Of a DNA stretch of 64,000 nucleotides, positions 3,142 to 22,525 are shown piece by piece. The position numbers were made by a program, and so were the translations under genes. Each line of letters opens with the position of its first letter. Position 1 is the first letter of the stretch. Source of the stretch: an uncultured Pseudomonadota bacterium (GTDB lineage: Bacteria > Pseudomonadota > Alphaproteobacteria > Rs-D84); the NCBI GenBank assembly GCA_902784345.1, contig CACZUD010000002.1, positions 158,183 through 222,182 of the forward strand, read 5' to 3'. Under the pieces are notes generated by a model. The model had not been told where the DNA came from and searched no databases. It was given only the letters and a program-made list of their open reading frames with translations.

Positions 3142-3717
3142 ATGAAAAAAATATTTATTCCTTTATTTATATTATTTTTGTCTTTGCCCGCGATAGCGAA
3201 CGAATACTTTTTACCAGAAAACAAGACTTTCATGGGAACATATCAAAACCAAGTTGGCTTTGGTATTGGTCAGGGTTTTGATACAGGCTGGATTTTGCCG
3301 CCACCGACAAGACCTGTGCCTTTTTATATTGGAACATTTACATATTCACAACCAACAACTTTTTTTAGGGTTTCTGCGCGTCGTTCTATAAACATATCTG
3401 AAACATTGGGACTTGATAAAAAATATGGATGGAAATGGCAAGATTATACAATCCCTATGATTTATTTAACCGAAGATATATTGTTGCTTGATTGCAACGA
3501 TTTTTATGTTGCGACAGGTGCAGGGCTTGGTTTACAAGCACAAGAAAATGAACGCCTTGGTGCAAAGTTGATATTTCAATTCAAGGTAACGTTTGGCTAT
3601 CATATTAACGAACGATGGTCGACAGAATTCTTTGTTCAACATTTTTCCAATGCCAACACCGCAGATGAAAATCATTCTTACGCTTTCTATGGTCTTGGCT
3701 TTACGTATAATTATTAA
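3142..3717 (+). CDS. PagL-like lipid A 3-O-deacylase / outer-membrane acyloxyacyl hydrolase
   Basis: 191 aa, signal peptide MKKIFIPLFILFLSLPAIA; C-terminal VQHFSNANTADENHSYAFYGLGFTYNY resembles the PagL H-x-S-N ... E-S-Y catalytic region. Confidence 0.55.
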   Translation: MKKIFIPLFILFLSLPAIANEYFLPENKTFMGTYQNQVGFGIGQGFDTGWILPPPTRPVPFYIGTFTYSQPTTFFRVSARRSINISETLGLDKKYGWKWQDYTIPMIYLTEDILLLDCNDFYVATGAGLGLQAQENERLGAKLIFQFKVTFGYHINERWSTEFFVQHFSNANTADENHSYAFYGLGFTYNY

Positions 3718-8318: not shown

Positions 8319-8340
8319 ACGGCGCAGATGCGCCGTTTTT
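8319..8340 (+). terminator. bidirectional intrinsic terminator (acggcgcagatgcgccgt + T5) between convergent genes
   Basis: 8-bp GC stem, T-run. Confidence 0.6.
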
Positions 8341-9409
8341 ACATAAAGACCGAAGTTATTTGTTCTTGCATCTGGAACGTTCCCAAAACAACCCACCCAA
8401 TGATAATAGAAACAAGAATAATTCCGACACTGTTAAGAACACTTGAAATGCTTTCCATTTTACGAACAGATTCTTCCATATAATCATTTGCAATCTGATT
8501 AAGGTTTTTATCAAAATCGTTCATATCTGAGTAAATCATTAAATCGCCAATAATTTCTTCGTTTGGAAAATCTTTACCTGTCATCGCCAACGCGCTTCCC
8601 AGATTTTCACCATTAGCAATATAATGCAGTGTTTCTTCCAAAGTATCTGATAAATATCTGTTTCCTGAATCTGCCAATAAACGCATCGCATCTGGCACAG
8701 AAACACCCGCCGACACCATCGCAGCCAAAGACATCAACCAACTGACCGAAACTTGCAATTTATATGTGTTATACGGTGGAAATCTGTCAAAAAAGGTTCT
8801 GATTCTGCCCGTCCATATTGGTAATGACACCCAAATAAACGCAAACAAACCAACAAAAGTAATTGCTATACCATACCAATATTTGTTTGCAAAATCAGAC
8901 ACCCAAACCAGTGACGCTGCTGTTCCGCGCCAAACAACATCACTGCCTGCGGCTTCTGCCAATGGTGGCACAAGATAAATTCCAACCATAACAATTATTG
9001 CAACTGTTAAAGCGAACAAAAACAACGGGTACGCAACCGCAGACCACATTGCACGCTTTATACGATTTATTCCATTAACAACGCGACCAATATTTTCCAG
9101 TGATATTAACAAACTGCTTACATTACCAGAAGTCAACAAAAGTGTTTCTTCACTTGGTACCCAACCAGATGTCGCCTGGGCAAATGTCATACCACGTTCA
9201 AGATTCTTTTGAATTTCACGCATGGCAATCGCAAATGGTTCATTTGGTTTACGTCCATTATGCGATTCTATCATTTCAATACGATGCAACGCATCCATCA
9301 AAGTAAAATTATTACGCAAAAGCGATGCGATTTTACGCGAAACCGCCATACGTTTTTCAGTATCGGTTTTAAAAACTATTTTTGCATAAAGTAATTCCAG
9401 TTTATTCAT
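8339..9409 (-). CDS. GspF/PilC-family inner-membrane platform protein (TcpE/BfpE/R64-PilR-like size)
   Basis: 356 aa; cytoplasmic N-domain, three hydrophobic TM segments, duplicated T2SSF-like halves; follows the ATPase. Confidence 0.75.
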   Translation of the reverse strand: MNKLELLYAKIVFKTDTEKRMAVSRKIASLLRNNFTLMDALHRIEMIESHNGRKPNEPFAIAMREIQKNLERGMTFAQATSGWVPSEETLLLTSGNVSSLLISLENIGRVVNGINRIKRAMWSAVAYPLFLFALTVAIIVMVGIYLVPPLAEAAGSDVVWRGTAASLVWVSDFANKYWYGIAITFVGLFAFIWVSLPIWTGRIRTFFDRFPPYNTYKLQVSVSWLMSLAAMVSAGVSVPDAMRLLADSGNRYLSDTLEETLHYIANGENLGSALAMTGKDFPNEEIIGDLMIYSDMNDFDKNLNQIANDYMEESVRKMESISSVLNSVGIILVSIIIGWVVLGTFQMQEQITSVFM

Positions 9410-9413
9410 TATC

Positions 9414-11033
9414 TTAATACACCCATGGTCTGTCTAATAAACCAACCCAGCGTTCCAATTCATCAACACCGATTATTCCGCGCAACATTAATTCCGTAGC
9501 CGCTTCTTTCAATGTGCGCCCGTTCATTTTTTCCAACCAATACTTTGTTGCGCCTTCGGTATCGCCAGAAAGAGCCAAACTTAAAAATTCACTGTTCGTC
9601 ATTATAATTTCGCCCGCCTTGATACGACCAATAGTTCCAGAACCTTTACAATGTTCACACCCTGGTCCACGAACAAAAACCTGATTCAACCCCAAATCAC
9701 CAAATGCATCTTTGACACGATTATACGCACCATGATCATGATGATTAATTAATGGTTCACGACAATATGGACAAAGCTTTTTAAACAAACGCATAGACAC
9801 AAGACCGCGCATCATTGTTTCGTCTTTTAATTTGAAAGATTCGACACCCATATCCAATAAACGCGTCAGTGCACCCATTGCAGAATTCGCATGCAGTGTT
9901 GTCCAAACATTATGACCAGACAATGCGCCCTTTACAGTTAATTGCGCCGCAGACAGCGTTCTTATTTCGCCAACCATCAATGTATCAGGGTCGCTTCGCA
10001 ACGCAGCTGCCAATGCTTCTGTAAACTTTTCTTCTCTTTGTTCTTCATTAACCGCATTAACCACCGGCATTTGATGCGCACCAAAAATCTTTTGTTCCGC
10101 AGGATCTTCCACAGTAATAAGATTTATTTCATATCTTCTTTCTTTTAACATCAACGCCATATTACGAACTAATGTGGTTGATTTACCAGATGACGTAGGC
10201 CCCGCAACAATAACCAATCCTGTTGGCGCGGAACGCAATCTTAACAATAATTTTTGTTCGTATTCATTAAATTCTTGTTCTGTTTTGATACCTTCGCTTG
10301 GGTTATCGTAAAGCAGACGCATAACAACATATTGCGAACCGAACGCAATCGGATTGAATTGCATTCTAATGCCCAAAACACCAGCCGGCAAATAAAGATC
10401 TTTTGTCCCACGTAATGGTGTCCGACCATCTTTTTGTGCAGTTTGATATTCGTTTTGTGCATAACTGGAATTTGAAATATCAGCCGATGCAAATGCGGCC
10501 CTTACAAAAGATTCCCCCCACTGTGAATTATATTCCAGAACAGGTTGCATACTGCCATCAATACGGAAATAAATTGTTGTTTGATCTGCAACTTCAATAT
10601 GAACATCTGAAACTTTCTGCGCCGCGGCACGTGCGATTATATCGACAAAATCTTTTTGCATCTGATTATCATAATCGGCACGTGAATGAACTGTTCCGCC
10701 CAATCTTTCATCATTTGTTTTATAGATATTCGATATCAAGCCCAAATCTGAATAAAAAGGTTCTTTGATTGGGCGTTTTTTTTGATGTAACAAATCAAGG
10801 AAAGCCAGCACGCGTCCATCATAACGATGTGTTCGCGATATTATAATCTCGCCACCAGAAAAATACGCAATCAAACTCTGCGTATCTTTAGGCAAAGCCA
10901 ATTCTGATGTATACGCAGTTAACAAACGATTATTATTTGCAAACAAGTAATCGATAATATCTTTACTGTTCGCGTTTTCCAAACCGCTTGGTATAGATTG
11001 TTGATTTGAAAAAATATTTTCAGTGTTTGACAT
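9414..11033 (-). CDS. GspE/PilB-family secretion/pilus assembly ATPase
   Basis: 539 aa; Walker A GPTSSGKST, Asp box ITVEDPAE, Walker B DTLMVGEIR, His box VWTTLHANSA, tetracysteine CPYC...CEHC. Confidence 0.9.
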   Translation of the reverse strand: MSNTENIFSNQQSIPSGLENANSKDIIDYLFANNNRLLTAYTSELALPKDTQSLIAYFSGGEIIISRTHRYDGRVLAFLDLLHQKKRPIKEPFYSDLGLISNIYKTNDERLGGTVHSRADYDNQMQKDFVDIIARAAAQKVSDVHIEVADQTTIYFRIDGSMQPVLEYNSQWGESFVRAAFASADISNSSYAQNEYQTAQKDGRTPLRGTKDLYLPAGVLGIRMQFNPIAFGSQYVVMRLLYDNPSEGIKTEQEFNEYEQKLLLRLRSAPTGLVIVAGPTSSGKSTTLVRNMALMLKERRYEINLITVEDPAEQKIFGAHQMPVVNAVNEEQREEKFTEALAAALRSDPDTLMVGEIRTLSAAQLTVKGALSGHNVWTTLHANSAMGALTRLLDMGVESFKLKDETMMRGLVSMRLFKKLCPYCREPLINHHDHGAYNRVKDAFGDLGLNQVFVRGPGCEHCKGSGTIGRIKAGEIIMTNSEFLSLALSGDTEGATKYWLEKMNGRTLKEAATELMLRGIIGVDELERWVGLLDRPWVY

Positions 11034-11036
11034 TAT

Positions 11037-11705
11037 TTATTTTCCAATACTTAAACTTTCTATTTCACCATCTTTTTCAAAAATAATACCATCATTCAAA
11101 GAAATTGATTTAACAATATAACCATCTAATTCTTTACCAACAGCAATACGTCTGTTTTGACCAGTTGCAACATCTTCGATAGTCGCTTGTAATTGATTAC
11201 CCATACCAATAACATTTATCAATTTATATTTTTTATTAACATCTGTTTCAACTTTCTTTTCTGGTGCTTTTGCAACAGGTGCAGGTTCTTCATCCAGCGC
11301 AGCCATTTGACGTTTTAAATTTTCTGTTTGGATATCCAACTGGGTTTTTGCGGCTTCTAATTCGTGTTGTTGTTGTTCTGCGCGTCCCGAAAGAGTATCT
11401 AATTCCATTTGCAATTTAATTTTTTCTGCATTTAATCTTTCCAAATCTAAATCTAGTTGCGCACGTTCTTTTTCTAATTGTACAACAACCTTTTCCTGTT
11501 CCAGCATTGTTATTTTTTCAAACAACGAACCATTTTCATTATAATTAAGCAGCGCGTCTGCAGACATTTTGTCCGCAGAATCAAAATCAGATACACTTTC
11601 TTCAACAATTTCTTCTTCGACATAATCATCATACGCAAAAACCGACTGGTTTACACCAATCACAAACAAAGAAACTATCATTATCAAATTCAATTTTTTC
11701 AACAT
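11037..11705 (-). CDS. secreted coiled-coil protein (position of BfpU/TcpS/PilP in type IVb pilus operons)
   Basis: Signal peptide MLKKLNLIMIVSLFVIGVNQSVFA; ~80-aa heptad-rich segment LEKERAQLDLDLERLNAEKIKLQMELD; C-terminal beta-rich domain. Confidence 0.5.
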   Translation of the reverse strand: MLKKLNLIMIVSLFVIGVNQSVFAYDDYVEEEIVEESVSDFDSADKMSADALLNYNENGSLFEKITMLEQEKVVVQLEKERAQLDLDLERLNAEKIKLQMELDTLSGRAEQQQHELEAAKTQLDIQTENLKRQMAALDEEPAPVAKAPEKKVETDVNKKYKLINVIGMGNQLQATIEDVATGQNRRIAVGKELDGYIVKSISLNDGIIFEKDGEIESLSIGK

Positions 11706-11716
11706 TTTTTGCCCTT

Positions 11717-12991
11717 TTATTTTGTATAAATAATTACTTCATAATTCCAAGTCCTTGTATTAGCACGCCAAGAAACAGATGTCATGTAAACACCCTGAAA
11801 ATCTTTAAAAGCATACATAAATTCAGATGGTATTAATTTTGAAGAAACCGCAACTTCTGTTACATGAACAGTTTCGCTTATGCCGTTATTCAAAATTGTA
11901 TCCGAAACATTGTTTATTTCTGCACGCGCCCCTATTTGTTGAAAAACACTGGCAATATCACGCGCAGCACTTATTGGATCGCGTTCATCTAACGAAGAAT
12001 ATGTCTTTAATGTTGGTAATTTAACACGAACGATAACTTCATCTTCTGATGTTTGTTGAACAACAGCCCCCGGCATTAATTCGCCACCAATTTCATAAAA
12101 ATCGTTCAGTGTTCCAAAATCCCGCATAAACGTCGCAGACACATATTCCCCATCACACTTTGCAAAAGTCTGATTCCAACCTGCGATTGGCTGCATAACA
12201 AAAGCGATTGCTTTATAGCATAAATTTGCACGTTCCATTACATTTGGCAAATTATCATATGGATATTGGAAAGACTGTACTGCTGCTTCTTGAGCTAATT
12301 TTTTATCTAAAATTTCTTGTTTTTTTAATTCTATTTGTTTTCTGTATTCGTTTGCCAACTCTGTATTTAAATTTACACCTTTATCAGATGGTGTTTTTAT
12401 TGGATTGCTTAAAATATAAAAACCGAACAAAACAAACAAAACGGCCATCAACAACGACGGCAACACCGCTTTCAAGAAACAAAATGGACGCAAACGCGCG
12501 ATATTACTATTTTTACCAATCAAATCAGATATATCTTTTTCTTGCGATTTGGGCATACCCCAACTTGCCGGCGCAATTAAAAGCCCCCAATCTGGCAAAG
12601 CAGAAAGTTCTGTATACGCTTTGCGTGCATCTTCTTGTTTTTCAAACAAAATATCACGAATAATAATTCCGTTTCTTACTGCGACAAGATAAAAACGATT
12701 ATTGACATTGAATACCGCCAAAAAAGAAATAAATTCTGATAAAGACTCTGCAATTTGTGCTGCCGCACTTTCGATACCTGTCTTTGCACCATCATAAGAA
12801 GATCCTACCCCAACCATAGATCGATATTCTGTAAAATAGCATCTTCTTTTACTTCCTGATTTAGCCAATTCTTTTGCGGCACTGCGTGCTGTATTACCAA
12901 CCCGCAGGGGCTGCCAAAAAAGCCCTGTTGCAAATTTTTTATGACGAACAGTTATGATTTGTTTTATCAATCTCTCTCTCTTTATGTGCAT
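11717..12991 (-). CDS. bitopic inner-membrane protein (BfpC/TcpD/PilO/GspL-like topology); start uncertain
   Basis: ~200-aa cytoplasmic domain, single TM FLKAVLPSLLMAVLFVLFGFYIL, ~220-aa periplasmic domain. The ORF track N-terminus (to 13075) runs through the upstream gene's terminator, so the start is placed at ATG 12989-12991. Confidence 0.5.
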   Translation of the reverse strand: MHIKRERLIKQIITVRHKKFATGLFWQPLRVGNTARSAAKELAKSGSKRRCYFTEYRSMVGVGSSYDGAKTGIESAAAQIAESLSEFISFLAVFNVNNRFYLVAVRNGIIIRDILFEKQEDARKAYTELSALPDWGLLIAPASWGMPKSQEKDISDLIGKNSNIARLRPFCFLKAVLPSLLMAVLFVLFGFYILSNPIKTPSDKGVNLNTELANEYRKQIELKKQEILDKKLAQEAAVQSFQYPYDNLPNVMERANLCYKAIAFVMQPIAGWNQTFAKCDGEYVSATFMRDFGTLNDFYEIGGELMPGAVVQQTSEDEVIVRVKLPTLKTYSSLDERDPISAARDIASVFQQIGARAEINNVSDTILNNGISETVHVTEVAVSSKLIPSEFMYAFKDFQGVYMTSVSWRANTRTWNYEVIIYTK

Positions 12992-13034
12992 TATAGCACA
13001 AATAGATAAAAAAAATAAAGACGAAATTTGTACT

Positions 13035-13060
13035 AAAAAAGTCGTATTTCTACGACTTTT
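13035..13060 (-). terminator. intrinsic terminator after lipoprotein gene (gtcgtatttctacgac + T-run on minus strand)
   Basis: Hairpin 7 nt downstream of the stop at 13063. Confidence 0.55.
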
Positions 13061-13062
13061 CA

Positions 13063-13377
13063 TTATTTTTGACAATTATATACCTTTACTTTGAATTTAA
13101 AGGTTTTATCTGGGCCAAAAAACGTATCTGGAATTTCTGTAATATCCTGTTTTACAATGTAATAAGAATCACCTATTTTTTCTTGTTCCAATATGCTTTT
13201 TTCCAGATATTCATATGCATCTGATAATTTATAATTTTTAACATTGGAATCCAGAGTATATAAAAATTCACAATTTTTTGGTTCATTATCTAATCTAACC
13301 AAACCAGAACCAGCATCTGTGGATGTTGCACACCCTGCCAATACAATCAAAGACGATAAAGTTAAAATTTTTTTCAT
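13063..13377 (-). CDS. small lipoprotein (104 aa)
   Basis: Lipobox LAGC at the signal peptide end; two further Cys. Confidence 0.5.
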   Translation of the reverse strand: MKKILTLSSLIVLAGCATSTDAGSGLVRLDNEPKNCEFLYTLDSNVKNYKLSDAYEYLEKSILEQEKIGDSYYIVKQDITEIPDTFFGPDKTFKFKVKVYNCQK

Positions 13378-15976: not shown

Positions 15977-16069
15977 CTAAAAGACCTTTGAAAGCAATTC
16001 TAGCAATAAAAAACACACAATGCAATTTAAATAAAAAACACACCAGAACGGTGCGTTTTTTATTTAAAC

Positions 16070-16146
<77 letters not shown>

Positions 16147-16198
16147 ATAAGCAAGGTTATTATATATCTTTAATCCTAAGAGTCAAATAAAAAACGTA

Positions 16199-16813
16199 CT
16201 AATCAAAACATTTTTTCAGTGTTTCGCCACTGTCATTCAAATCAACATGTTTGTTGCGGATTTCTTCATCTGCCCGTATTTGTTGTTTAAGTAAAACAAT
16301 ATCAGGATGATTTTGTAATTCATTATTTAATTTATCAATAGCAAATTCTATATCTTTTTCATTTTTTACGAATATCGGAACGATTGAATTTGCGGCATTT
16401 TGTACAGATTTTTTAAATAAATCTTTGTTGTCTTCTATAACAGATAAATAGGCCCTTATATGTTCGTCTTCATGTTGCAGTATCGCATTATAAGAACAAG
16501 AATTTGGTCTGTGAGATATATCTATTTGAACCAGAAAATCCGAATACCCTATCGTCGTATCTATATTTTTCAAAGACACACAAAAACCGTCTTCTATGGA
16601 AGTTATATCTGCTGTTATTTCAAATTCATCGACCAGTGTTGCTACTACATTTCCATGTAAAACATCCATTTTTTGTAATGGTTGAACAACACTTTTCGTC
16701 CAAACAGGCACATTTATTGTAACTTCAGGGTTTAATTTATAATTTAAACAATCGTCCCCCGCAAATGCATCTGAAATAAAAAACGATAAAAATATATAAA
16801 TAAATTTTTTCAT
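16199..16813 (-). CDS. secreted HExxH protein (DUF922-like putative Zn-dependent peptidase), paralog B
   Basis: Signal peptide; HEDEH motif; ~30% identical to the upstream paralog (shared C..YK.NP, G.C.SL..ID, SC.Y, PIF.K.EK, KLN blocks). Confidence 0.55.
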   Translation of the reverse strand: MKKFIYIFLSFFISDAFAGDDCLNYKLNPEVTINVPVWTKSVVQPLQKMDVLHGNVVATLVDEFEITADITSIEDGFCVSLKNIDTTIGYSDFLVQIDISHRPNSCSYNAILQHEDEHIRAYLSVIEDNKDLFKKSVQNAANSIVPIFVKNEKDIEFAIDKLNNELQNHPDIVLLKQQIRADEEIRNKHVDLNDSGETLKKCFD

Positions 16814-16815
16814 TT

Positions 16816-17454
16816 CTAATCTATAACTATATCAGAATTTTTCATTTTTTTATAAAAATCATCACATTTCCAAATATGATAGCTGTCGCCACGTTCATCT
16901 ATTTTTTTATTTTCCAATGTTAATTCTTCTACTATATCTGATTTAATTTTTTCAACAAAATCACTTTTATTTAATTTTTCAGAAAAATCAGGCACTTCTT
17001 TTTCAGATTTTATGAATATTGGTTTAAAATCTTTTGCGCCATCTTTCACAGATTTTTTTATCTTATCAAGATTAGATTTTATCACATTTTTATAAACATT
17101 TACATGATCTTGTTCATGTCTATAAACTATATCATACGCACAAGATTTTTCTTTTAATCTTTTATCTATTATAACATCAAAATCTTCAATAATTTCAATA
17201 TCAATACCACGCAAAGATGCACAATATCCGCCGTGTACAGGAATTATTACCGTATGCGCCATGGCACTGTACGACATCTTTGGTTCTGTATAACCCAACT
17301 TTCCAACCATTTCTTTATCTGATTTTTGAGTTTTAACATCTTTAATGTTTAATTTTATATCAACATCTGGATTATATTTATACTTTGAACAATCATATGC
17401 AAAAGACATATATGGTGAAAACACAAATAACAAAAAGATTATTTTCTTAAACAT
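16816..17454 (-). CDS. secreted HExxH protein (DUF922-like), paralog A
   Basis: Signal peptide MFKKIIFLLFVFSPYMSFA; HEQDH motif. Confidence 0.55.
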   Translation of the reverse strand: MFKKIIFLLFVFSPYMSFAYDCSKYKYNPDVDIKLNIKDVKTQKSDKEMVGKLGYTEPKMSYSAMAHTVIIPVHGGYCASLRGIDIEIIEDFDVIIDKRLKEKSCAYDIVYRHEQDHVNVYKNVIKSNLDKIKKSVKDGAKDFKPIFIKSEKEVPDFSEKLNKSDFVEKIKSDIVEELTLENKKIDERGDSYHIWKCDDFYKKMKNSDIVID

Positions 17455-17494
17455 ATTGTTATATTGTCTGCTTTTTTAATATTCTGCAACAAAA

Positions 17495-18532
17495 TTATTT
17501 TTTATCTATTTCAGATAAATATTCTTCATACATAAAATCCCAAATGTTCACATATTTTTTACAAACCCGTTCATAATTATCCAAAACAGCCGGTAATCTG
17601 CGTTTATATTCTTCTGGGGTGCACATCTTTAAAACTTGTTCTATATCTGATTCTGTTGTTATTTTTATTATGCCATCTGGGTTAAAGAATTGATCTATTT
17701 CTGTCGCACCAAGATATATTGGAATACATTGGTTTGCCAGTGCTGTTGTAAATCTTTCTGAAAAATAGTATTTATTCACGTCATTTTCTAAACAAATACA
17801 AAACATATAATCGCGGTAAGTATCTGATAATTTTTCTACACGTGGACCACCATCAAAATTACCAAAAGTATCGCATAAATGTTCTTTTTTACACTTTATT
17901 GCTAAATTGTACCTGAATTCGTGCAGTGAACACATACGTTTATCAGAAGAAATAAAAGAACAAATTTTACTTTTGTGTTTATACATTTCTGGTTCACATG
18001 GTTCGTCCCAAATACCAGCAGCAAAAGGAACAAATCTTGCATTCGGGATTGTGTCTAAAATCTTTGAAGAATATGTAAAAATATAATCAAACTGTTTATA
18101 TAAATCGGGATATTTTTCAAATATTTTATAATCTTCTGGGACAATAGATTCAGATTCTACAAACATACCAAATTTATGTTTTGGTTTTCCCATTGTTTCC
18201 AACATGGCATCATTAGTGTAAAAATGCATATCTAACCCAATATTAAATTTATCCCATATAAAATATTTTGATGCTTCGGCAGAACAATAATCAAAATGTC
18301 TATCGCGCAGGAAAAAAGTCCGCATTTTTTTTCCATCTTTATTATAAATATCTGGTTCTTTATTACTTGGTAAAATCGCAAAATTATAGTAAGGAAAAAA
18401 TAACTTGCCATACAACGTTTTAACATAACGATGTTTTTCACTGGTGTTATTTTTATAGCTCGCGATTTTTATACCACATAAATATACGTGTACACGACCA
18501 TTTGTGCCTATTTCTTTTTTTAAAAATTTCAT
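17495..18532 (-). CDS. GT10-family alpha-1,3-fucosyltransferase-like glycosyltransferase
   Basis: DYMFCICLENDVNKYYFSERFTTALANQCIPIYLGATEIDQFFNPDGIIKI matches the alpha1,3-FucT motif of H. pylori FutA (KFNLCFENTQGYGYVTEKIIDAYFSHTIPIYWGSPSVAKDFNPKSFVNV). Confidence 0.65.
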   Translation of the reverse strand: MKFLKKEIGTNGRVHVYLCGIKIASYKNNTSEKHRYVKTLYGKLFFPYYNFAILPSNKEPDIYNKDGKKMRTFFLRDRHFDYCSAEASKYFIWDKFNIGLDMHFYTNDAMLETMGKPKHKFGMFVESESIVPEDYKIFEKYPDLYKQFDYIFTYSSKILDTIPNARFVPFAAGIWDEPCEPEMYKHKSKICSFISSDKRMCSLHEFRYNLAIKCKKEHLCDTFGNFDGGPRVEKLSDTYRDYMFCICLENDVNKYYFSERFTTALANQCIPIYLGATEIDQFFNPDGIIKITTESDIEQVLKMCTPEEYKRRLPAVLDNYERVCKKYVNIWDFMYEEYLSEIDKK

Positions 18533-18641
18533 TAAAAAACTCTTTTATTATTCCAACATAATTTAAGTATGGGAATAATTTTCTATAATATCAAGCAGAA
18601 AACCGCCAGTATAAAAAATTCACAGATGTCGGTAAGTTCTA

Positions 18642-21056
18642 TTACATTGTTTGCTTTTTTAAATATTCTGCAACAAAGTTATTTCCATATGTTTTATAAA
18701 GTTCTTCGGCCAATAATACAGATGAACGTCCGGATTCAAATAACTTTAACATATTTCCCAAACCACCCAATTCAGTATTTAAAATCACAGATTCCCCGTT
18801 AACAGGACGTGATAATAATACCGCACGTTTAAGATTTGGATATGCCTGACCTTTGATAAATGCCATTTCCAGTGGATTTAAATTCCATTTTTCATAATCA
18901 CTGGTATCTGCCGCAGGATTACGGAAGAATAATACAGTCTGTGCCTGACCACGAACAACATCACCTATCCCAAGTTTATCAAGAACATTTGCACGTTGGA
19001 AAGCAACCATATATGCCTGACGATTTTTACGACCTTCTTGAAGTCCGGCTATGAAATTATCGCGAAACATTTTATTTTCCAACATTGGTGCTGTTTCATC
19101 AATCATAATAAGTGAAGGATTTCCGCCGGATACAGTTACATTATTTATTCTGTGTAATATATAAGATATAACAGCCGGCGCCAATACTTCATCTTGCAAA
19201 ATTTCTGTAAAATCAAAAGTTGTTAAACGCGCACCTAAATCAAGAGTATCTGCTTCTTCATTAAATATGTCGCCATATTGTAATGGATCAACCCATTTCT
19301 TTAATTCGGCGCGCATCGGGCCACTGGATGAAAAACAGCTTTCATAAAGATTCTTTAATAACCTGTCTTTATCCTGCAGATAATCAAAGTTAACAGATAC
19401 AGCACGTGCAATTTCATCCATTGATTCTGCATCATTAATATTGGTTATCATTGAAAACCATCTGCGTAAAAATGCACGATTACTGCTACTATCTGGCATT
19501 TTCAGAGGATTCAAATGTGTTAAAAATGCGTCACTACTTGCATCTTTTTCTTTGCCATTCATTGTTATATATTTACCACCAACAGCCAGAGTAAATATTT
19601 CAGCCCCCTTGTTTCTGTCAAAGAAAAACGCTTTTAACTTTTGATAACGTAAAGATTGTGCAATAAGGAACGAGAACAAAGTCGTTTTACCACCACCAGT
19701 TGGACCTATGGTCAGGGTATGACCAACGGCTGCCGGTTTATCAGAAACATGAAATTGAAATTGATATGGTGTTCCTTGGGCTGTTGGGAAAACAACAATT
19801 GGACCCTGACCCCAATCACTGTCCTTAACACCAGTTGGCATAGATGACAACGGTATACTTGTTGCAGCCGTCTTTGATAACATTTTAAATATTCTTGGAA
19901 ATACATCAAATCCAGGTAATTGAGCAAAAAAGGACACTTTTGATGCAAAAGTTTCAACAACTGGTGATATACCAAATGAAGCAGATATTTTCTTAAATTC
20001 ATCAACATATTCATTTAATTCTTCTATACTTTTACCAAACAACATAAACAAAGGATAATAATCAACCAATGTTTGATTACCAGTTTGATTTTCATCCATT
20101 TGATTTTGTGCTTCACTTATTTGTTCAAGTGTAGATTCTTCTGTTTCATCGGTAATAGTTGAACGATGTTGACGCATCAGTGTTTCAATATCACTTGATT
20201 GTAAAATATGAAAAGCATTCATACATATCATTTCACATTGAATAGTTGAAACAGTATCAAAAAATTCTTCATCCATATAATCAGGCGATATTTTAAAAGA
20301 AAGTGCAGCAGCATAATATTTTTTATCACCACTGGTATATTCAATTACACCGTTTTTCATAAATTCAACATTATCAACACATACTAAATTTGATATATTT
20401 TCGTCACATTTTTTTATTATCGGCTTTGATACAGGTGACAAAATTCTACCAAAGAAAGTTGCCATATTATCGATATTATTATTTCTTAACAATATTGGTT
20501 TATATGCAGATAATATAGATTCAACATAATTACAACACTGATTTAATTTTTCACGATTATTTTGACCATGAACAGAAACAACAACATAATAATTATTAGA
20601 ATAAATCTTTAAACCTTGATTATTCCATTTATCATATATTTTCTGCAAAGTTGGCTGATCAAATTCATAATCTGTTTTTTGGTCTATGAAATCACGAATT
20701 GTAAAAAATCGCAGACAAACATCAGGATCTTGAATTTGATTAAATAATTGGGCACGCAAATCCAGCATTTTTTCACGATTTTTATCACTCATCATACTGG
20801 TTTGTACACCTTTTATTTTATAAACACGAACCAAAGATCCATCATCAATCGATAAACTGTCATCACTGTAAACGGCATTGAAAGGTAAATAATCGGAATA
20901 TTTTGTATAACCAAATTTTGGAAAAACTTTCTTTACAATTGTTGGTATATAAGCCAACAAAACCAAAAATACCAGAACAACAGACATTGCTATTATAACC
21001 AAAGTCAATGTCATAGAATCTGTATTTCCTGCAAAATAATTAAATAATCTTTCCAT
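18642..21056 (-). CDS. virB4: type IV secretion system ATPase VirB4/TrbE family
   Basis: 804 aa; N-terminal TM; Walker A TIGPTGGGKTT; CagE_TrbE_VirB-type C-terminal domain. Confidence 0.9.
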   Translation of the reverse strand: MERLFNYFAGNTDSMTLTLVIIAMSVVLVFLVLLAYIPTIVKKVFPKFGYTKYSDYLPFNAVYSDDSLSIDDGSLVRVYKIKGVQTSMMSDKNREKMLDLRAQLFNQIQDPDVCLRFFTIRDFIDQKTDYEFDQPTLQKIYDKWNNQGLKIYSNNYYVVVSVHGQNNREKLNQCCNYVESILSAYKPILLRNNNIDNMATFFGRILSPVSKPIIKKCDENISNLVCVDNVEFMKNGVIEYTSGDKKYYAAALSFKISPDYMDEEFFDTVSTIQCEMICMNAFHILQSSDIETLMRQHRSTITDETEESTLEQISEAQNQMDENQTGNQTLVDYYPLFMLFGKSIEELNEYVDEFKKISASFGISPVVETFASKVSFFAQLPGFDVFPRIFKMLSKTAATSIPLSSMPTGVKDSDWGQGPIVVFPTAQGTPYQFQFHVSDKPAAVGHTLTIGPTGGGKTTLFSFLIAQSLRYQKLKAFFFDRNKGAEIFTLAVGGKYITMNGKEKDASSDAFLTHLNPLKMPDSSSNRAFLRRWFSMITNINDAESMDEIARAVSVNFDYLQDKDRLLKNLYESCFSSSGPMRAELKKWVDPLQYGDIFNEEADTLDLGARLTTFDFTEILQDEVLAPAVISYILHRINNVTVSGGNPSLIMIDETAPMLENKMFRDNFIAGLQEGRKNRQAYMVAFQRANVLDKLGIGDVVRGQAQTVLFFRNPAADTSDYEKWNLNPLEMAFIKGQAYPNLKRAVLLSRPVNGESVILNTELGGLGNMLKLFESGRSSVLLAEELYKTYGNNFVAEYLKKQTM

Positions 21057-21059
21057 TTT

Positions 21060-21359
21060 TTACACTACTAATTTTCTTGGCACCCTATTTTTTATTATTC
21101 TTATACTTGAAAATATAGTTTGAGCGATTTGCGGATCTTGTTTTGAATAAAAAGCCAATATTGCATGACAAAGCGATAAAATACCCAAAAAAAACAAAGG
21201 TAACCACATCGGTATATTACGTGGCGGGATTATCAAAAAAAAGATTATTCCCGCTACAAAAACCAAGAACCAAATCAGGAAATTTAATATTGCAAGATTA
21301 TAAGGCACATAAAATATGCGCGGTGGGTTTGCCAAAGCTTTCAGAACTTTTTGCCTCAA
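21060..21359 (-). CDS. virB3: type IV secretion system protein VirB3
   Basis: 99 aa; LANPPRIFYVPYNLAILNF (VirB3 L..P....GVP......N motif) followed by two TM helices; 3 nt upstream of virB4. Confidence 0.75.
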   Translation of the reverse strand: MRQKVLKALANPPRIFYVPYNLAILNFLIWFLVFVAGIIFFLIIPPRNIPMWLPLFFLGILSLCHAILAFYSKQDPQIAQTIFSSIRIIKNRVPRKLVV

Positions 21360-21673
21360 AATCTCTCCTCTAATGGTTTTATTATAACAATTTCAACTTT
21401 TTTCAACAAGCACAAAAGTAAAAATATCATTTTTTGTTAAAAATATTAAAAAAGCCTGTTTTATTAACATGTTTATTATTTTGATTATTTTTCAACATTT
21501 TTAATAAAACCCATAAAAAACAAAGATTTTTTTGTTGAAAAAGTGTTAATAAAAAGTAAATAACAGTTTTTAATAAAATAAACAGCATTAATAAAAACAA
21601 TAACATAAATATAATAAATTATTTGATTTTTTATAAATCTGGTATATAATCGTCCAGTAAAAAGGATTAAGAC

Positions 21674-21808
21674 ATGAAATTTTTAAGTTCTTTAAAGGCT
21701 TGGAAAAAACGCGGTAACATCAAACAAATCCGTCGTGGAAAACAAGTTTTATTGATTGACCCTTCTAATCCTAAATTAAAGGCAAAACAGGGTTTCAAGA
21801 AAAAATAA
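21674..21808 (+). CDS. rpmJ: 50S ribosomal protein L36, non-zinc type B
   Basis: 44 aa MKFLSSLKAWKKRGNIKQIRRGKQVLLIDPSNPKLKAKQGFKKK; TATAAT at 21644-21649; below the ORF-track size cutoff. Confidence 0.75.
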   Translation: MKFLSSLKAWKKRGNIKQIRRGKQVLLIDPSNPKLKAKQGFKKK

Positions 21809-21832
21809 TACCTGGAATACCGGGTATTTTTT

Positions 21833-22525
21833 TTAGTTTAAAAAAGCTTCTTCCATGACTTGGTTTATTTCAATAGTGCCAAGTCCACTTTTACGCAGAT
21901 AATTTATCTGATTTTCAGTTGGTTTATAAAGTGCCACGCTGTGTGATGCTTTCTTTGGAACAGAATTTATATATTGTGTTGGTTTTAAAATAACCCGTGC
22001 ACTTTCATCAGCCATAACGTAAAAAGATACATCTGAATCGCATTCTGGTGCATTTTTTTCTATTTTTGCACTGCCAAAAAGGTCTGTTAATGTATTTTTA
22101 TATGCTGCAACACGTGTTTTTACAAAAATGCCGGTATTTTCAGCAAAATGTTGTGCTGTAACACTTATTTTTAAATTATCATGGTTTTTATCAATAATTT
22201 GTCCTTCAAAAACACTGTTTTTTCCACAATTTTTTATAAAAACATTTAAAAAAGCTGGTGATTTATTAGTTGTCTTGAAATCCATAATAATATTTGAATT
22301 TTCTGCTTTTATATCAATATTTAAATCTATATTGCCGGCAATTTCACCTATATATATAATATGTACTGGTAATTTAGGTGTTTTATTAATAGATATTGTA
22401 TTTTTATCACTATCAAAATTGGCACTCTCATAATCTGATAAATCTTCATAAAAAACACCGTCGCGGAAAACCAAAGTTTCTGCTGGAAAAGTTTTTATAT
22501 TGAATTCTTGCCAAAGGTATGACAT
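21833..22525 (-). CDS. short SufD-like (SufBD C-terminal domain) protein
   Basis: 230 aa; C-terminus PTENQINYLRKSGLGTIEINQVMEEAF resembles SufD ...EEALFYLRSRGI...; no sufB/sufC adjacent. Confidence 0.4.
   Translation of the reverse strand: MSYLWQEFNIKTFPAETLVFRDGVFYEDLSDYESANFDSDKNTISINKTPKLPVHIIYIGEIAGNIDLNIDIKAENSNIIMDFKTTNKSPAFLNVFIKNCGKNSVFEGQIIDKNHDNLKISVTAQHFAENTGIFVKTRVAAYKNTLTDLFGSAKIEKNAPECDSDVSFYVMADESARVILKPTQYINSVPKKASHSVALYKPTENQINYLRKSGLGTIEINQVMEEAFLN

Follow-up and report, generated by a model that had tools for sequence, protein, structure and literature searches.

The window analysed here is a 64,000-nt stretch of DNA from an uncultured alphaproteobacterium of the lineage Rs-D84 (contig CACZUD010000002.1, forward-strand positions 158,183 to 222,182), and part of its minus strand is occupied by genes of a type IV secretion system. 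The window is chromosomal and comes from a Ca. Enterousia-like bacterium; the neighbours of the pair are housekeeping genes, and the closest counterparts of the window are loci of Enterousia and Rs-D84 MAGs. The Ca. Enterousia lineage comprises animal-gut bacteria with genomes under about 1 Mb (PMC12306168). The first gene of the unit is virB3 (21060..21359, 99 aa), recognised by the Pfam VirB3 model (E=1.2e-5, 26.0 bits against a cut-off of 23.9) and by its conserved position. It is followed on the same strand by virB4, the gene for the type IV secretion ATPase (18642..21056, 804 aa), identified by Pfam CagE_TrbE_VirB (E=6e-17) and by synteny. Further downstream are two small paralogous genes, an upstream one that we call U (16816..17454) and a downstream one that we call D (16199..16813), both on the minus strand. 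A tRNA-Met gene (16070..16146, minus strand), served by a strong promoter-like site of its own at 16159-16186 (TTGACT-16-TATAAT, 11/12), lies directly downstream of D and forms the 3′ boundary of the unit. GC content falls to 0.28-0.29 at 16001-18000 and 20001-22000, against about 0.36 window-wide.

In the window, U is separated from virB4 by 1.2 kb, and this interval is filled by a cassette of ~1.14 kb (1,139 nt; 17501..18641, minus strand) with a fucosyltransferase-like GT10 gene (ORF 17495-18532; Glyco_transf_10, E=1.7e-8). The cassette sits exactly at the virB4-U junction. Between the cassette and U lies a second copy of the last ~45 nt of virB4 with its stop region (17459..17500, minus strand; original at 18642-18684). 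The two copies are direct repeats of 90-93% identity, both give overlapping blastn matches to positions 9314-9358 of the related locus L010, and the duplicated virB4 3′ end now stands immediately upstream of U. This duplicate is the footprint of the cassette insertion. By blastn, the cassette is absent from the virB4 junction in loci L009 and L010, and it is found at 87% identity after D in L011 and L014, which shows that it moves within the locus. Since the cassette was inserted at the virB4-U junction, the ancestral order was virB3-virB4-U-D with tight coupling, and U and D are the distal part of a virB3-virB4 operon. The initial annotation of this stretch had placed the pair next to secretion genes, and virB3 and virB4 do lie upstream on the same strand; that the pair belongs to their operon is the main point that it missed.

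U and D are genuine genes and real tandem paralogues. They encode 212 and 204 aa, are separated by 2 nt between the stop codon of U and the start of D, and share 31% identity over 205 columns (BLASTP, E=1e-24), as had been proposed (~205 aa, about 30% identity). Other features read earlier from the pair also stand. Both N-termini resemble Sec signal peptides when the sequences are read by eye, with a Lys-rich start followed by a hydrophobic core; the apparent leaders end at SFA|YDC in U and AFA|GDDC in D, and neither N-terminus shows a lipobox. The conserved cysteines are four in number (residues 22/78/105/197 in U and 22/78/106/202 in D), aligned between the paralogues and throughout the family, and U has a C-terminal extension beyond the last of them. 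The HExxH motif reads HEQDH in U (residues 113-117, nt 17104-17118) and HEDEH in D (residues 114-118, nt 16460-16474). A near-invariant Asp further downstream, D191 of D (nt 16241-16243) and D186 of U (nt 16897-16899), is a candidate third metal ligand.

Some further features of the neighbourhood deserve mention. Nearly all related loci conserve, directly before virB3, a gene for a 230-aa protein with a weak SufBD-core match (21833-22525, minus strand, in the window); the annotated parts of the window contain no other suf genes. The strand of the virB genes also carries, shortly after lpxC/lpxK, a group of genes resembling an R64-type type IVb pilus (8339-13377, minus strand): a T2SSF platform protein (8339-9409), a T2SSE ATPase (9414-11033), a 222-aa ORF without family, a PilO-like protein (PAP_PilO, 11717-13075) and a 104-aa lipoprotein (13063-13377). 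A gene for a PagL-like lipid A 3-O-deacylase is located at 3142-3717 on the plus strand, and together with lpxC, lpxK and DUF374 it shows that lipid A synthesis and remodelling persist in this reduced genome. In several related loci (L001, L009, L015, L018 and L063-L065) a variable glycosyltransferase island (Glf, GT2, GT1, GT10, GT92) lies between the D gene and DUF374-lpxK; it differs between close genomes and may be a hot-spot of surface-glycan variation.

Searches of a protein collection clustered at 90% gave 49 homologues for U and 667 for D, none of them named or carrying a Pfam domain. A profile built from both paralogues extended the family to 1186 clusters (50% identity) at E<=1e-3 and to 233 at E<=1e-10. 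At thresholds as loose as E<=1, U and D themselves matched neither Pfam nor NCBIfam; when their relatives were included and PHROGs was scanned as well, still no significant family emerged; and searches of PDB sequences with single proteins and with profiles returned only coiled-coil noise such as apolipoproteins. The family is thus far without a name or a Pfam model; it is mainly alphaproteobacterial, its members are Sec-exported and have ~200-250 aa. A tblastn search of 72,556 plasmids found it in only one Microvirga plasmid and one Methylorubrum AM1 megaplasmid, in neither case visibly beside secretion genes (the Methylorubrum stretch has no annotation). Within the sensitivity of tblastn, the family therefore seems not to belong to plasmid conjugation systems.

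To describe the link with virB4 beyond the window, 49 related loci containing the virB4 3′ end were collected from 43 genome scans and contig look-ups. In 48 of them the start of the first family gene falls within -8 to +9 nt of the virB4 stop codon, on the same strand. These lineages span VirB4 identities of 42-94% and GC contents of 30 to 59%: the family gene is still joined to virB4 in L050 (VirB4 58% identical, GC 51%), in L007 and L058 (44-47%, GC 30-33%) and in L063 and L064 (42%, GC 58-59%). The linkage also outlasts rearrangements of the flanks, since dnaG, or sufBD-like and ychF genes, may be found downstream where other loci have DUF374-lpxK. Coupling of the family gene to virB4 is therefore conserved, and it was previously undescribed. 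The only virB genes in the window and in the 10-kb flanks of the related loci are virB3 and virB4. Three loci need separate comment. In L058, virB4 is split into ORFs of 584 and 223 aa (37-2475; a frameshift or an assembly error), with the family gene directly after. L037 (OZ246409.1, a 716-kb 'chromosome') is titled 'Muribaculaceae' and carries the full virB3-virB4-D-DUF374-lpxK arrangement, and L042 (DFEL01000144.1), titled 'Cyanobacteria UBA3803', begins at a D gene resembling Rs-D84 loci; both titles are probably taxonomic mislabels or belong to mis-binned contigs.

Members outside this virB4-linked group behave differently. All four distant members with usable context stand alone, with no adjoining secretion genes: in L052, L055 and L061 the family gene is alone among housekeeping genes, and in L053 it is divergent from a DUF374-waaA-lpxK-lpxC operon. 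Together with the plasmid members, these stand-alone genes indicate a general core activity, not one confined to type IV secretion, with one branch of the family having become tied to virB4.

This distribution bears on whether the proteins might be general periplasmic metallohydrolases for envelope maintenance, with no role in type IV secretion, their place beside virB4 being an inherited gene order that is possibly tied to nearby LPS or glycosyltransferase genes. The distant members just described agree with such a role, as does the position of the Rs-D84 gene, flanked by virB4 on one side and DUF374-lpxK-lpxC on the other and followed by variable islands of glycosyltransferases, and so do the glycosyltransferases that follow the family gene in L063 and L064. 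However, the start of the gene abuts or overlaps the virB4 stop codon in 48 of 49 loci, the coupling is retained in the seven loci where DUF374/lpxK has moved or is absent (L004, L012, L017, L020, L032, L033 and L051), and it is retained with VirB4 proteins down to 42% identity. We consider this alternative unlikely, and it survives better than the other two discussed below.

HExxH was found in 169 of 169 close homologues and in every full-length member among 148 more distant cluster representatives, the six exceptions being fragments of 72-135 aa. The initial annotation would have been refuted by loss of the motif in homologues; its conservation, near and distant, indicates instead that the motif in U and D is not a chance occurrence. 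Among 130 diverse sequences, four residues never vary (C78, H114, E115 and H118, in the numbering of D), and at least 90% conserve C22, G54, C106, D191 and C202; D191 is invariant in a subset of 50 sequences. Many distant members end with CxxW at the C-terminus. Because the Glu is invariant along with both His, the pattern is that expected of a catalytic site and goes beyond the need of a purely structural metal site.

AF2 models were obtained for U (30 sequences, pLDDT 85.4) and D (50 sequences, pLDDT 93.0, pTM 0.83). In the D model, short strands at 30-34 and 39-43 precede an unusually long hairpin with arms at 54-73 and 76-97, which is followed by a 38-residue helix (106-143). Next come another short strand (147-149) and the helices 152-167, 170-193 and 197-203. 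HExxH (114-118) is near the start of helix 106-143 and D191 near the end of helix 170-193. In this model, D191 and C202 could return to the level of H114/H118 and C106 if the later helices fold back, an arrangement compatible with a His/His/Asp site that a C106-C202 disulfide would hold together. The predicted fold is confident and has no match among PDB folds: Foldseek against the PDB found no related solved structure and no peptidase (best E 1.1 for U and 0.15 for D, TM<=0.25), so a zincin fold, which the initial annotation expected structure prediction to reveal, was not recognised. The top Foldseek match in BFVD was a 'zincin protease' of phage AR9, a weak similarity (E=6e-3, probability 0.30, TM 0.19).

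These data can also be read as describing a structural analogue of VirB5, that is, a stalk, pilus-tip or adhesin-type subunit in which HExxH forms a non-catalytic metal site for structure or ligand binding. The gene slot after virB4, the signal peptide and the size of ~200-220 aa are those of VirB5; the D model, mostly long helices with a beta appendage, recalls the three-helix bundle with globular appendage of VirB5/TraC, and Rickettsiales-type (rvh) systems have no recognisable VirB5 (PMC2653234). Against this, no VirB5 chain appeared in the PDB profile search or in Foldseek, so that neither sequence nor fold similarity to TraC/VirB5 was seen in PDB searches. U and D had no VirB5 Pfam match, and no VirB5 family occurs among the Pfam families matched by at least two of 130 members (among the matches listed, the best 25 of 86 families). 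Moreover, the HExxH Glu is invariant in full-length members, including those without adjoining secretion genes, as expected for catalysis, and some member loci have no secretion context at all. Such a structural role seems to us quite improbable.

The history of the duplication was examined with a neighbour-joining tree of 77 family genes from the related loci. Three groups were found, all of which keep HExxH: a D clade with a member in all Rs-D84 genomes; a U clade from eight genomes, the window included, whose genes always precede D; and a D2 clade, whose genes always follow D, from eight other genomes that belong to another Rs-D84 subgroup (L038-L041, L044, L045 and L049 at about 10560-11290, and L042 at 621-1290). 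Since D2 forms its own clade, tandem duplication occurred at least twice, or one copy was relocated. Genomes without U are nested among genomes with U, and hence U was lost repeatedly. D is the conserved core copy and U an accessory duplicate.

A dN/dS comparison between the two paralogues, as proposed in the initial annotation, is not meaningful, because synonymous sites are saturated at 31% identity. It was computed for orthologue pairs by the Nei-Gojobori method, with synonymous sites near saturation in the more distant pairs, and gave 0.09-0.17 for D, 0.18-0.46 for U and 0.06-0.12 for VirB4. Both D and U are under purifying selection, U being less constrained and evolving about twice as fast, and these ratios show no sign of gene-wide positive or diversifying selection in either gene, so that the idea of diversifying effectors is not supported. 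That the two proteins form a secreted effector or toxin pair, for example proteases against host mucus or neighbouring microbes that might leave the periplasm through the type IV system in the manner of pertussis toxin, is the least probable explanation: Sec leaders on both proteins, repeated tandem duplication into separate U and D2 clades, the faster evolution and patchy distribution of U and the reduced genome of a bacterium that probably depends on other cells (PMC12306168) would agree with it, but the strong purifying selection on D and its presence in all genomes examined point to a housekeeping protein or a part of the machine more than to an effector, gene-wide positive selection was not seen, translational coupling to an ATPase subunit would be unusual for an effector, and no immunity-type gene is adjacent.

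Our preferred reading, to which we give a probability of roughly 0.45, is that U and D are periplasmic metal-dependent hydrolases that are made together with VirB3 and VirB4 and have an accessory role in a scattered type IV secretion system resembling rvh. As periplasmic metallohydrolases they would be remotely zincin- or DUF922-like. The metal, most likely zinc, would be bound through the two His of HExxH and probably through the near-invariant Asp ~73 residues downstream, the invariant Glu of the motif would act as general base, and the four conserved Cys may form two stabilising disulfides. The family gene is translationally coupled to virB4 in Ca. Enterousia (order Rs-D84) and in several other lineages, where it takes the place that virB5 has in the archetypal operon, and it is to these organisms that the accessory role is assigned. 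D and U would probably process a periplasmic component or the cell wall during assembly of the secretion system. Candidate targets are a pilin or another Vir protein, peptidoglycan, or something unrelated to secretion.

A broader proposal, which we regard as doubtful, is that the family represents an unrecognised conserved component of the rvh-like scattered type IV systems of reduced-genome Alphaproteobacteria. It would then be a Sec-exported metallohydrolase with a non-PDB fold, coupled to VirB4 and placed in the VirB5 slot, possibly with a VirB1-type role in cell-wall or pilin processing, and the tandem duplicates, U upstream and D2 downstream, would tune its specificity. If the secretion role is true, minimal type IV secretion systems without recognisable VirB5 gain an enzymatic accessory, and the result bears on the poorly understood assembly of such systems in uncultured gut bacteria that probably depend on hosts or partners. 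A large family that Pfam does not yet model (~1,200 clusters at 50% identity) would be defined as well; its clear catalytic-type signature and its confident predicted fold, which has no solved relative, make it a good target for structure and activity work. If the secretion link is positional only, the family is one more uncharacterised periplasmic HExxH family.

Two resemblances to other proteins were considered and rejected. The residue order of a Gly, then a Cys, then a QHExDH-like motif recalls the three motifs of peptide deformylase, suggesting a deformylase-like site. However, no deformylase fold was found despite the many deformylase entries in the PDB, U and D are exported, and the secondary-structure layout would place C78 at the end of the hairpin, far from HExxH. 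The Brucella protein BAB1_0270 ('ZnMP') was also rejected as a relative; with an HTH-Xre regulator it makes up a putative type II toxin-antitoxin system, and so it is another kind of protein.

Among described families, DUF922, to which the initial annotation related the pair, is the nearest. It was the most frequent sub-threshold Pfam match, found in 13 of 130 diverse relatives at E<=0.1 with a best E of 0.0023, ahead of eCIS_core (7), Peptidase_M56 (3) and M48 (2), and the recurrent sub-threshold families are all zincin-type among the matches listed (the best 25 of 86 families). When 10 distant relatives were scanned singly, four matched DUF922 with 10.6-17.9 bits, against a gathering cut-off of 27 bits. 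On the 153 positions of the profile these matches span 87-151 (P0266), 87-149 (P0315), 88-104 (P0238) and 59-115 (P0300), and thus three of the four begin at position 87 or 88, a few residues ahead of HExxH. All these matches are below threshold and U and D themselves have none at E<=1; by the Pfam criterion the two are not members of DUF922, and their family would be at most a remote, if plausible, sister; what remains of the earlier suggestion is this weak and recurrent similarity among relatives. Both groups are small bacterial proteins with HExxH, whereas the N-terminal half is not aligned. DUF922 proteins are also exported and largely alphaproteobacterial, and to our knowledge DUF922 has no link to type IV secretion. 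DUF922 (Pfam PF06037, COG5661 'predicted secreted Zn-dependent protease') is uncharacterised and is a predicted zincin, an assignment based on a weak fold-recognition score (PMC3650047).

Zincins that have a distant third ligand (gluzincins and aspzincins, for example M48/M56) were compared as well. In these enzymes HExxH is on a helix that follows a beta strand, as in the D model; the near-invariant acidic residue ~73 residues past HExxH lies on a later helix, and weak M48 or M56 matches occur in 5 of 130 relatives. The candidate ligand of the family, however, would be the Asp of an NxxID motif, whereas gluzincins use Glu, and the family differs from zincins in its elongated predicted shape, its 20-residue hairpin, its 38-residue helix and its four conserved Cys.

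Among type IV secretion proteins, VirB5/TraC/TrwJ is similar in gene position right after virB4, signal peptide, length and a helix-rich, elongated prediction, and differs in having no sequence, profile or fold similarity to U and D; we know of no VirB5 with HExxH. VirB1 is a lytic transglycosylase with an SLT domain; U and D have no SLT match, and their chemistry would differ. As periplasmic hydrolases encoded within a virB operon, however, U and D may have an accessory role comparable to that of VirB1-type hydrolases.
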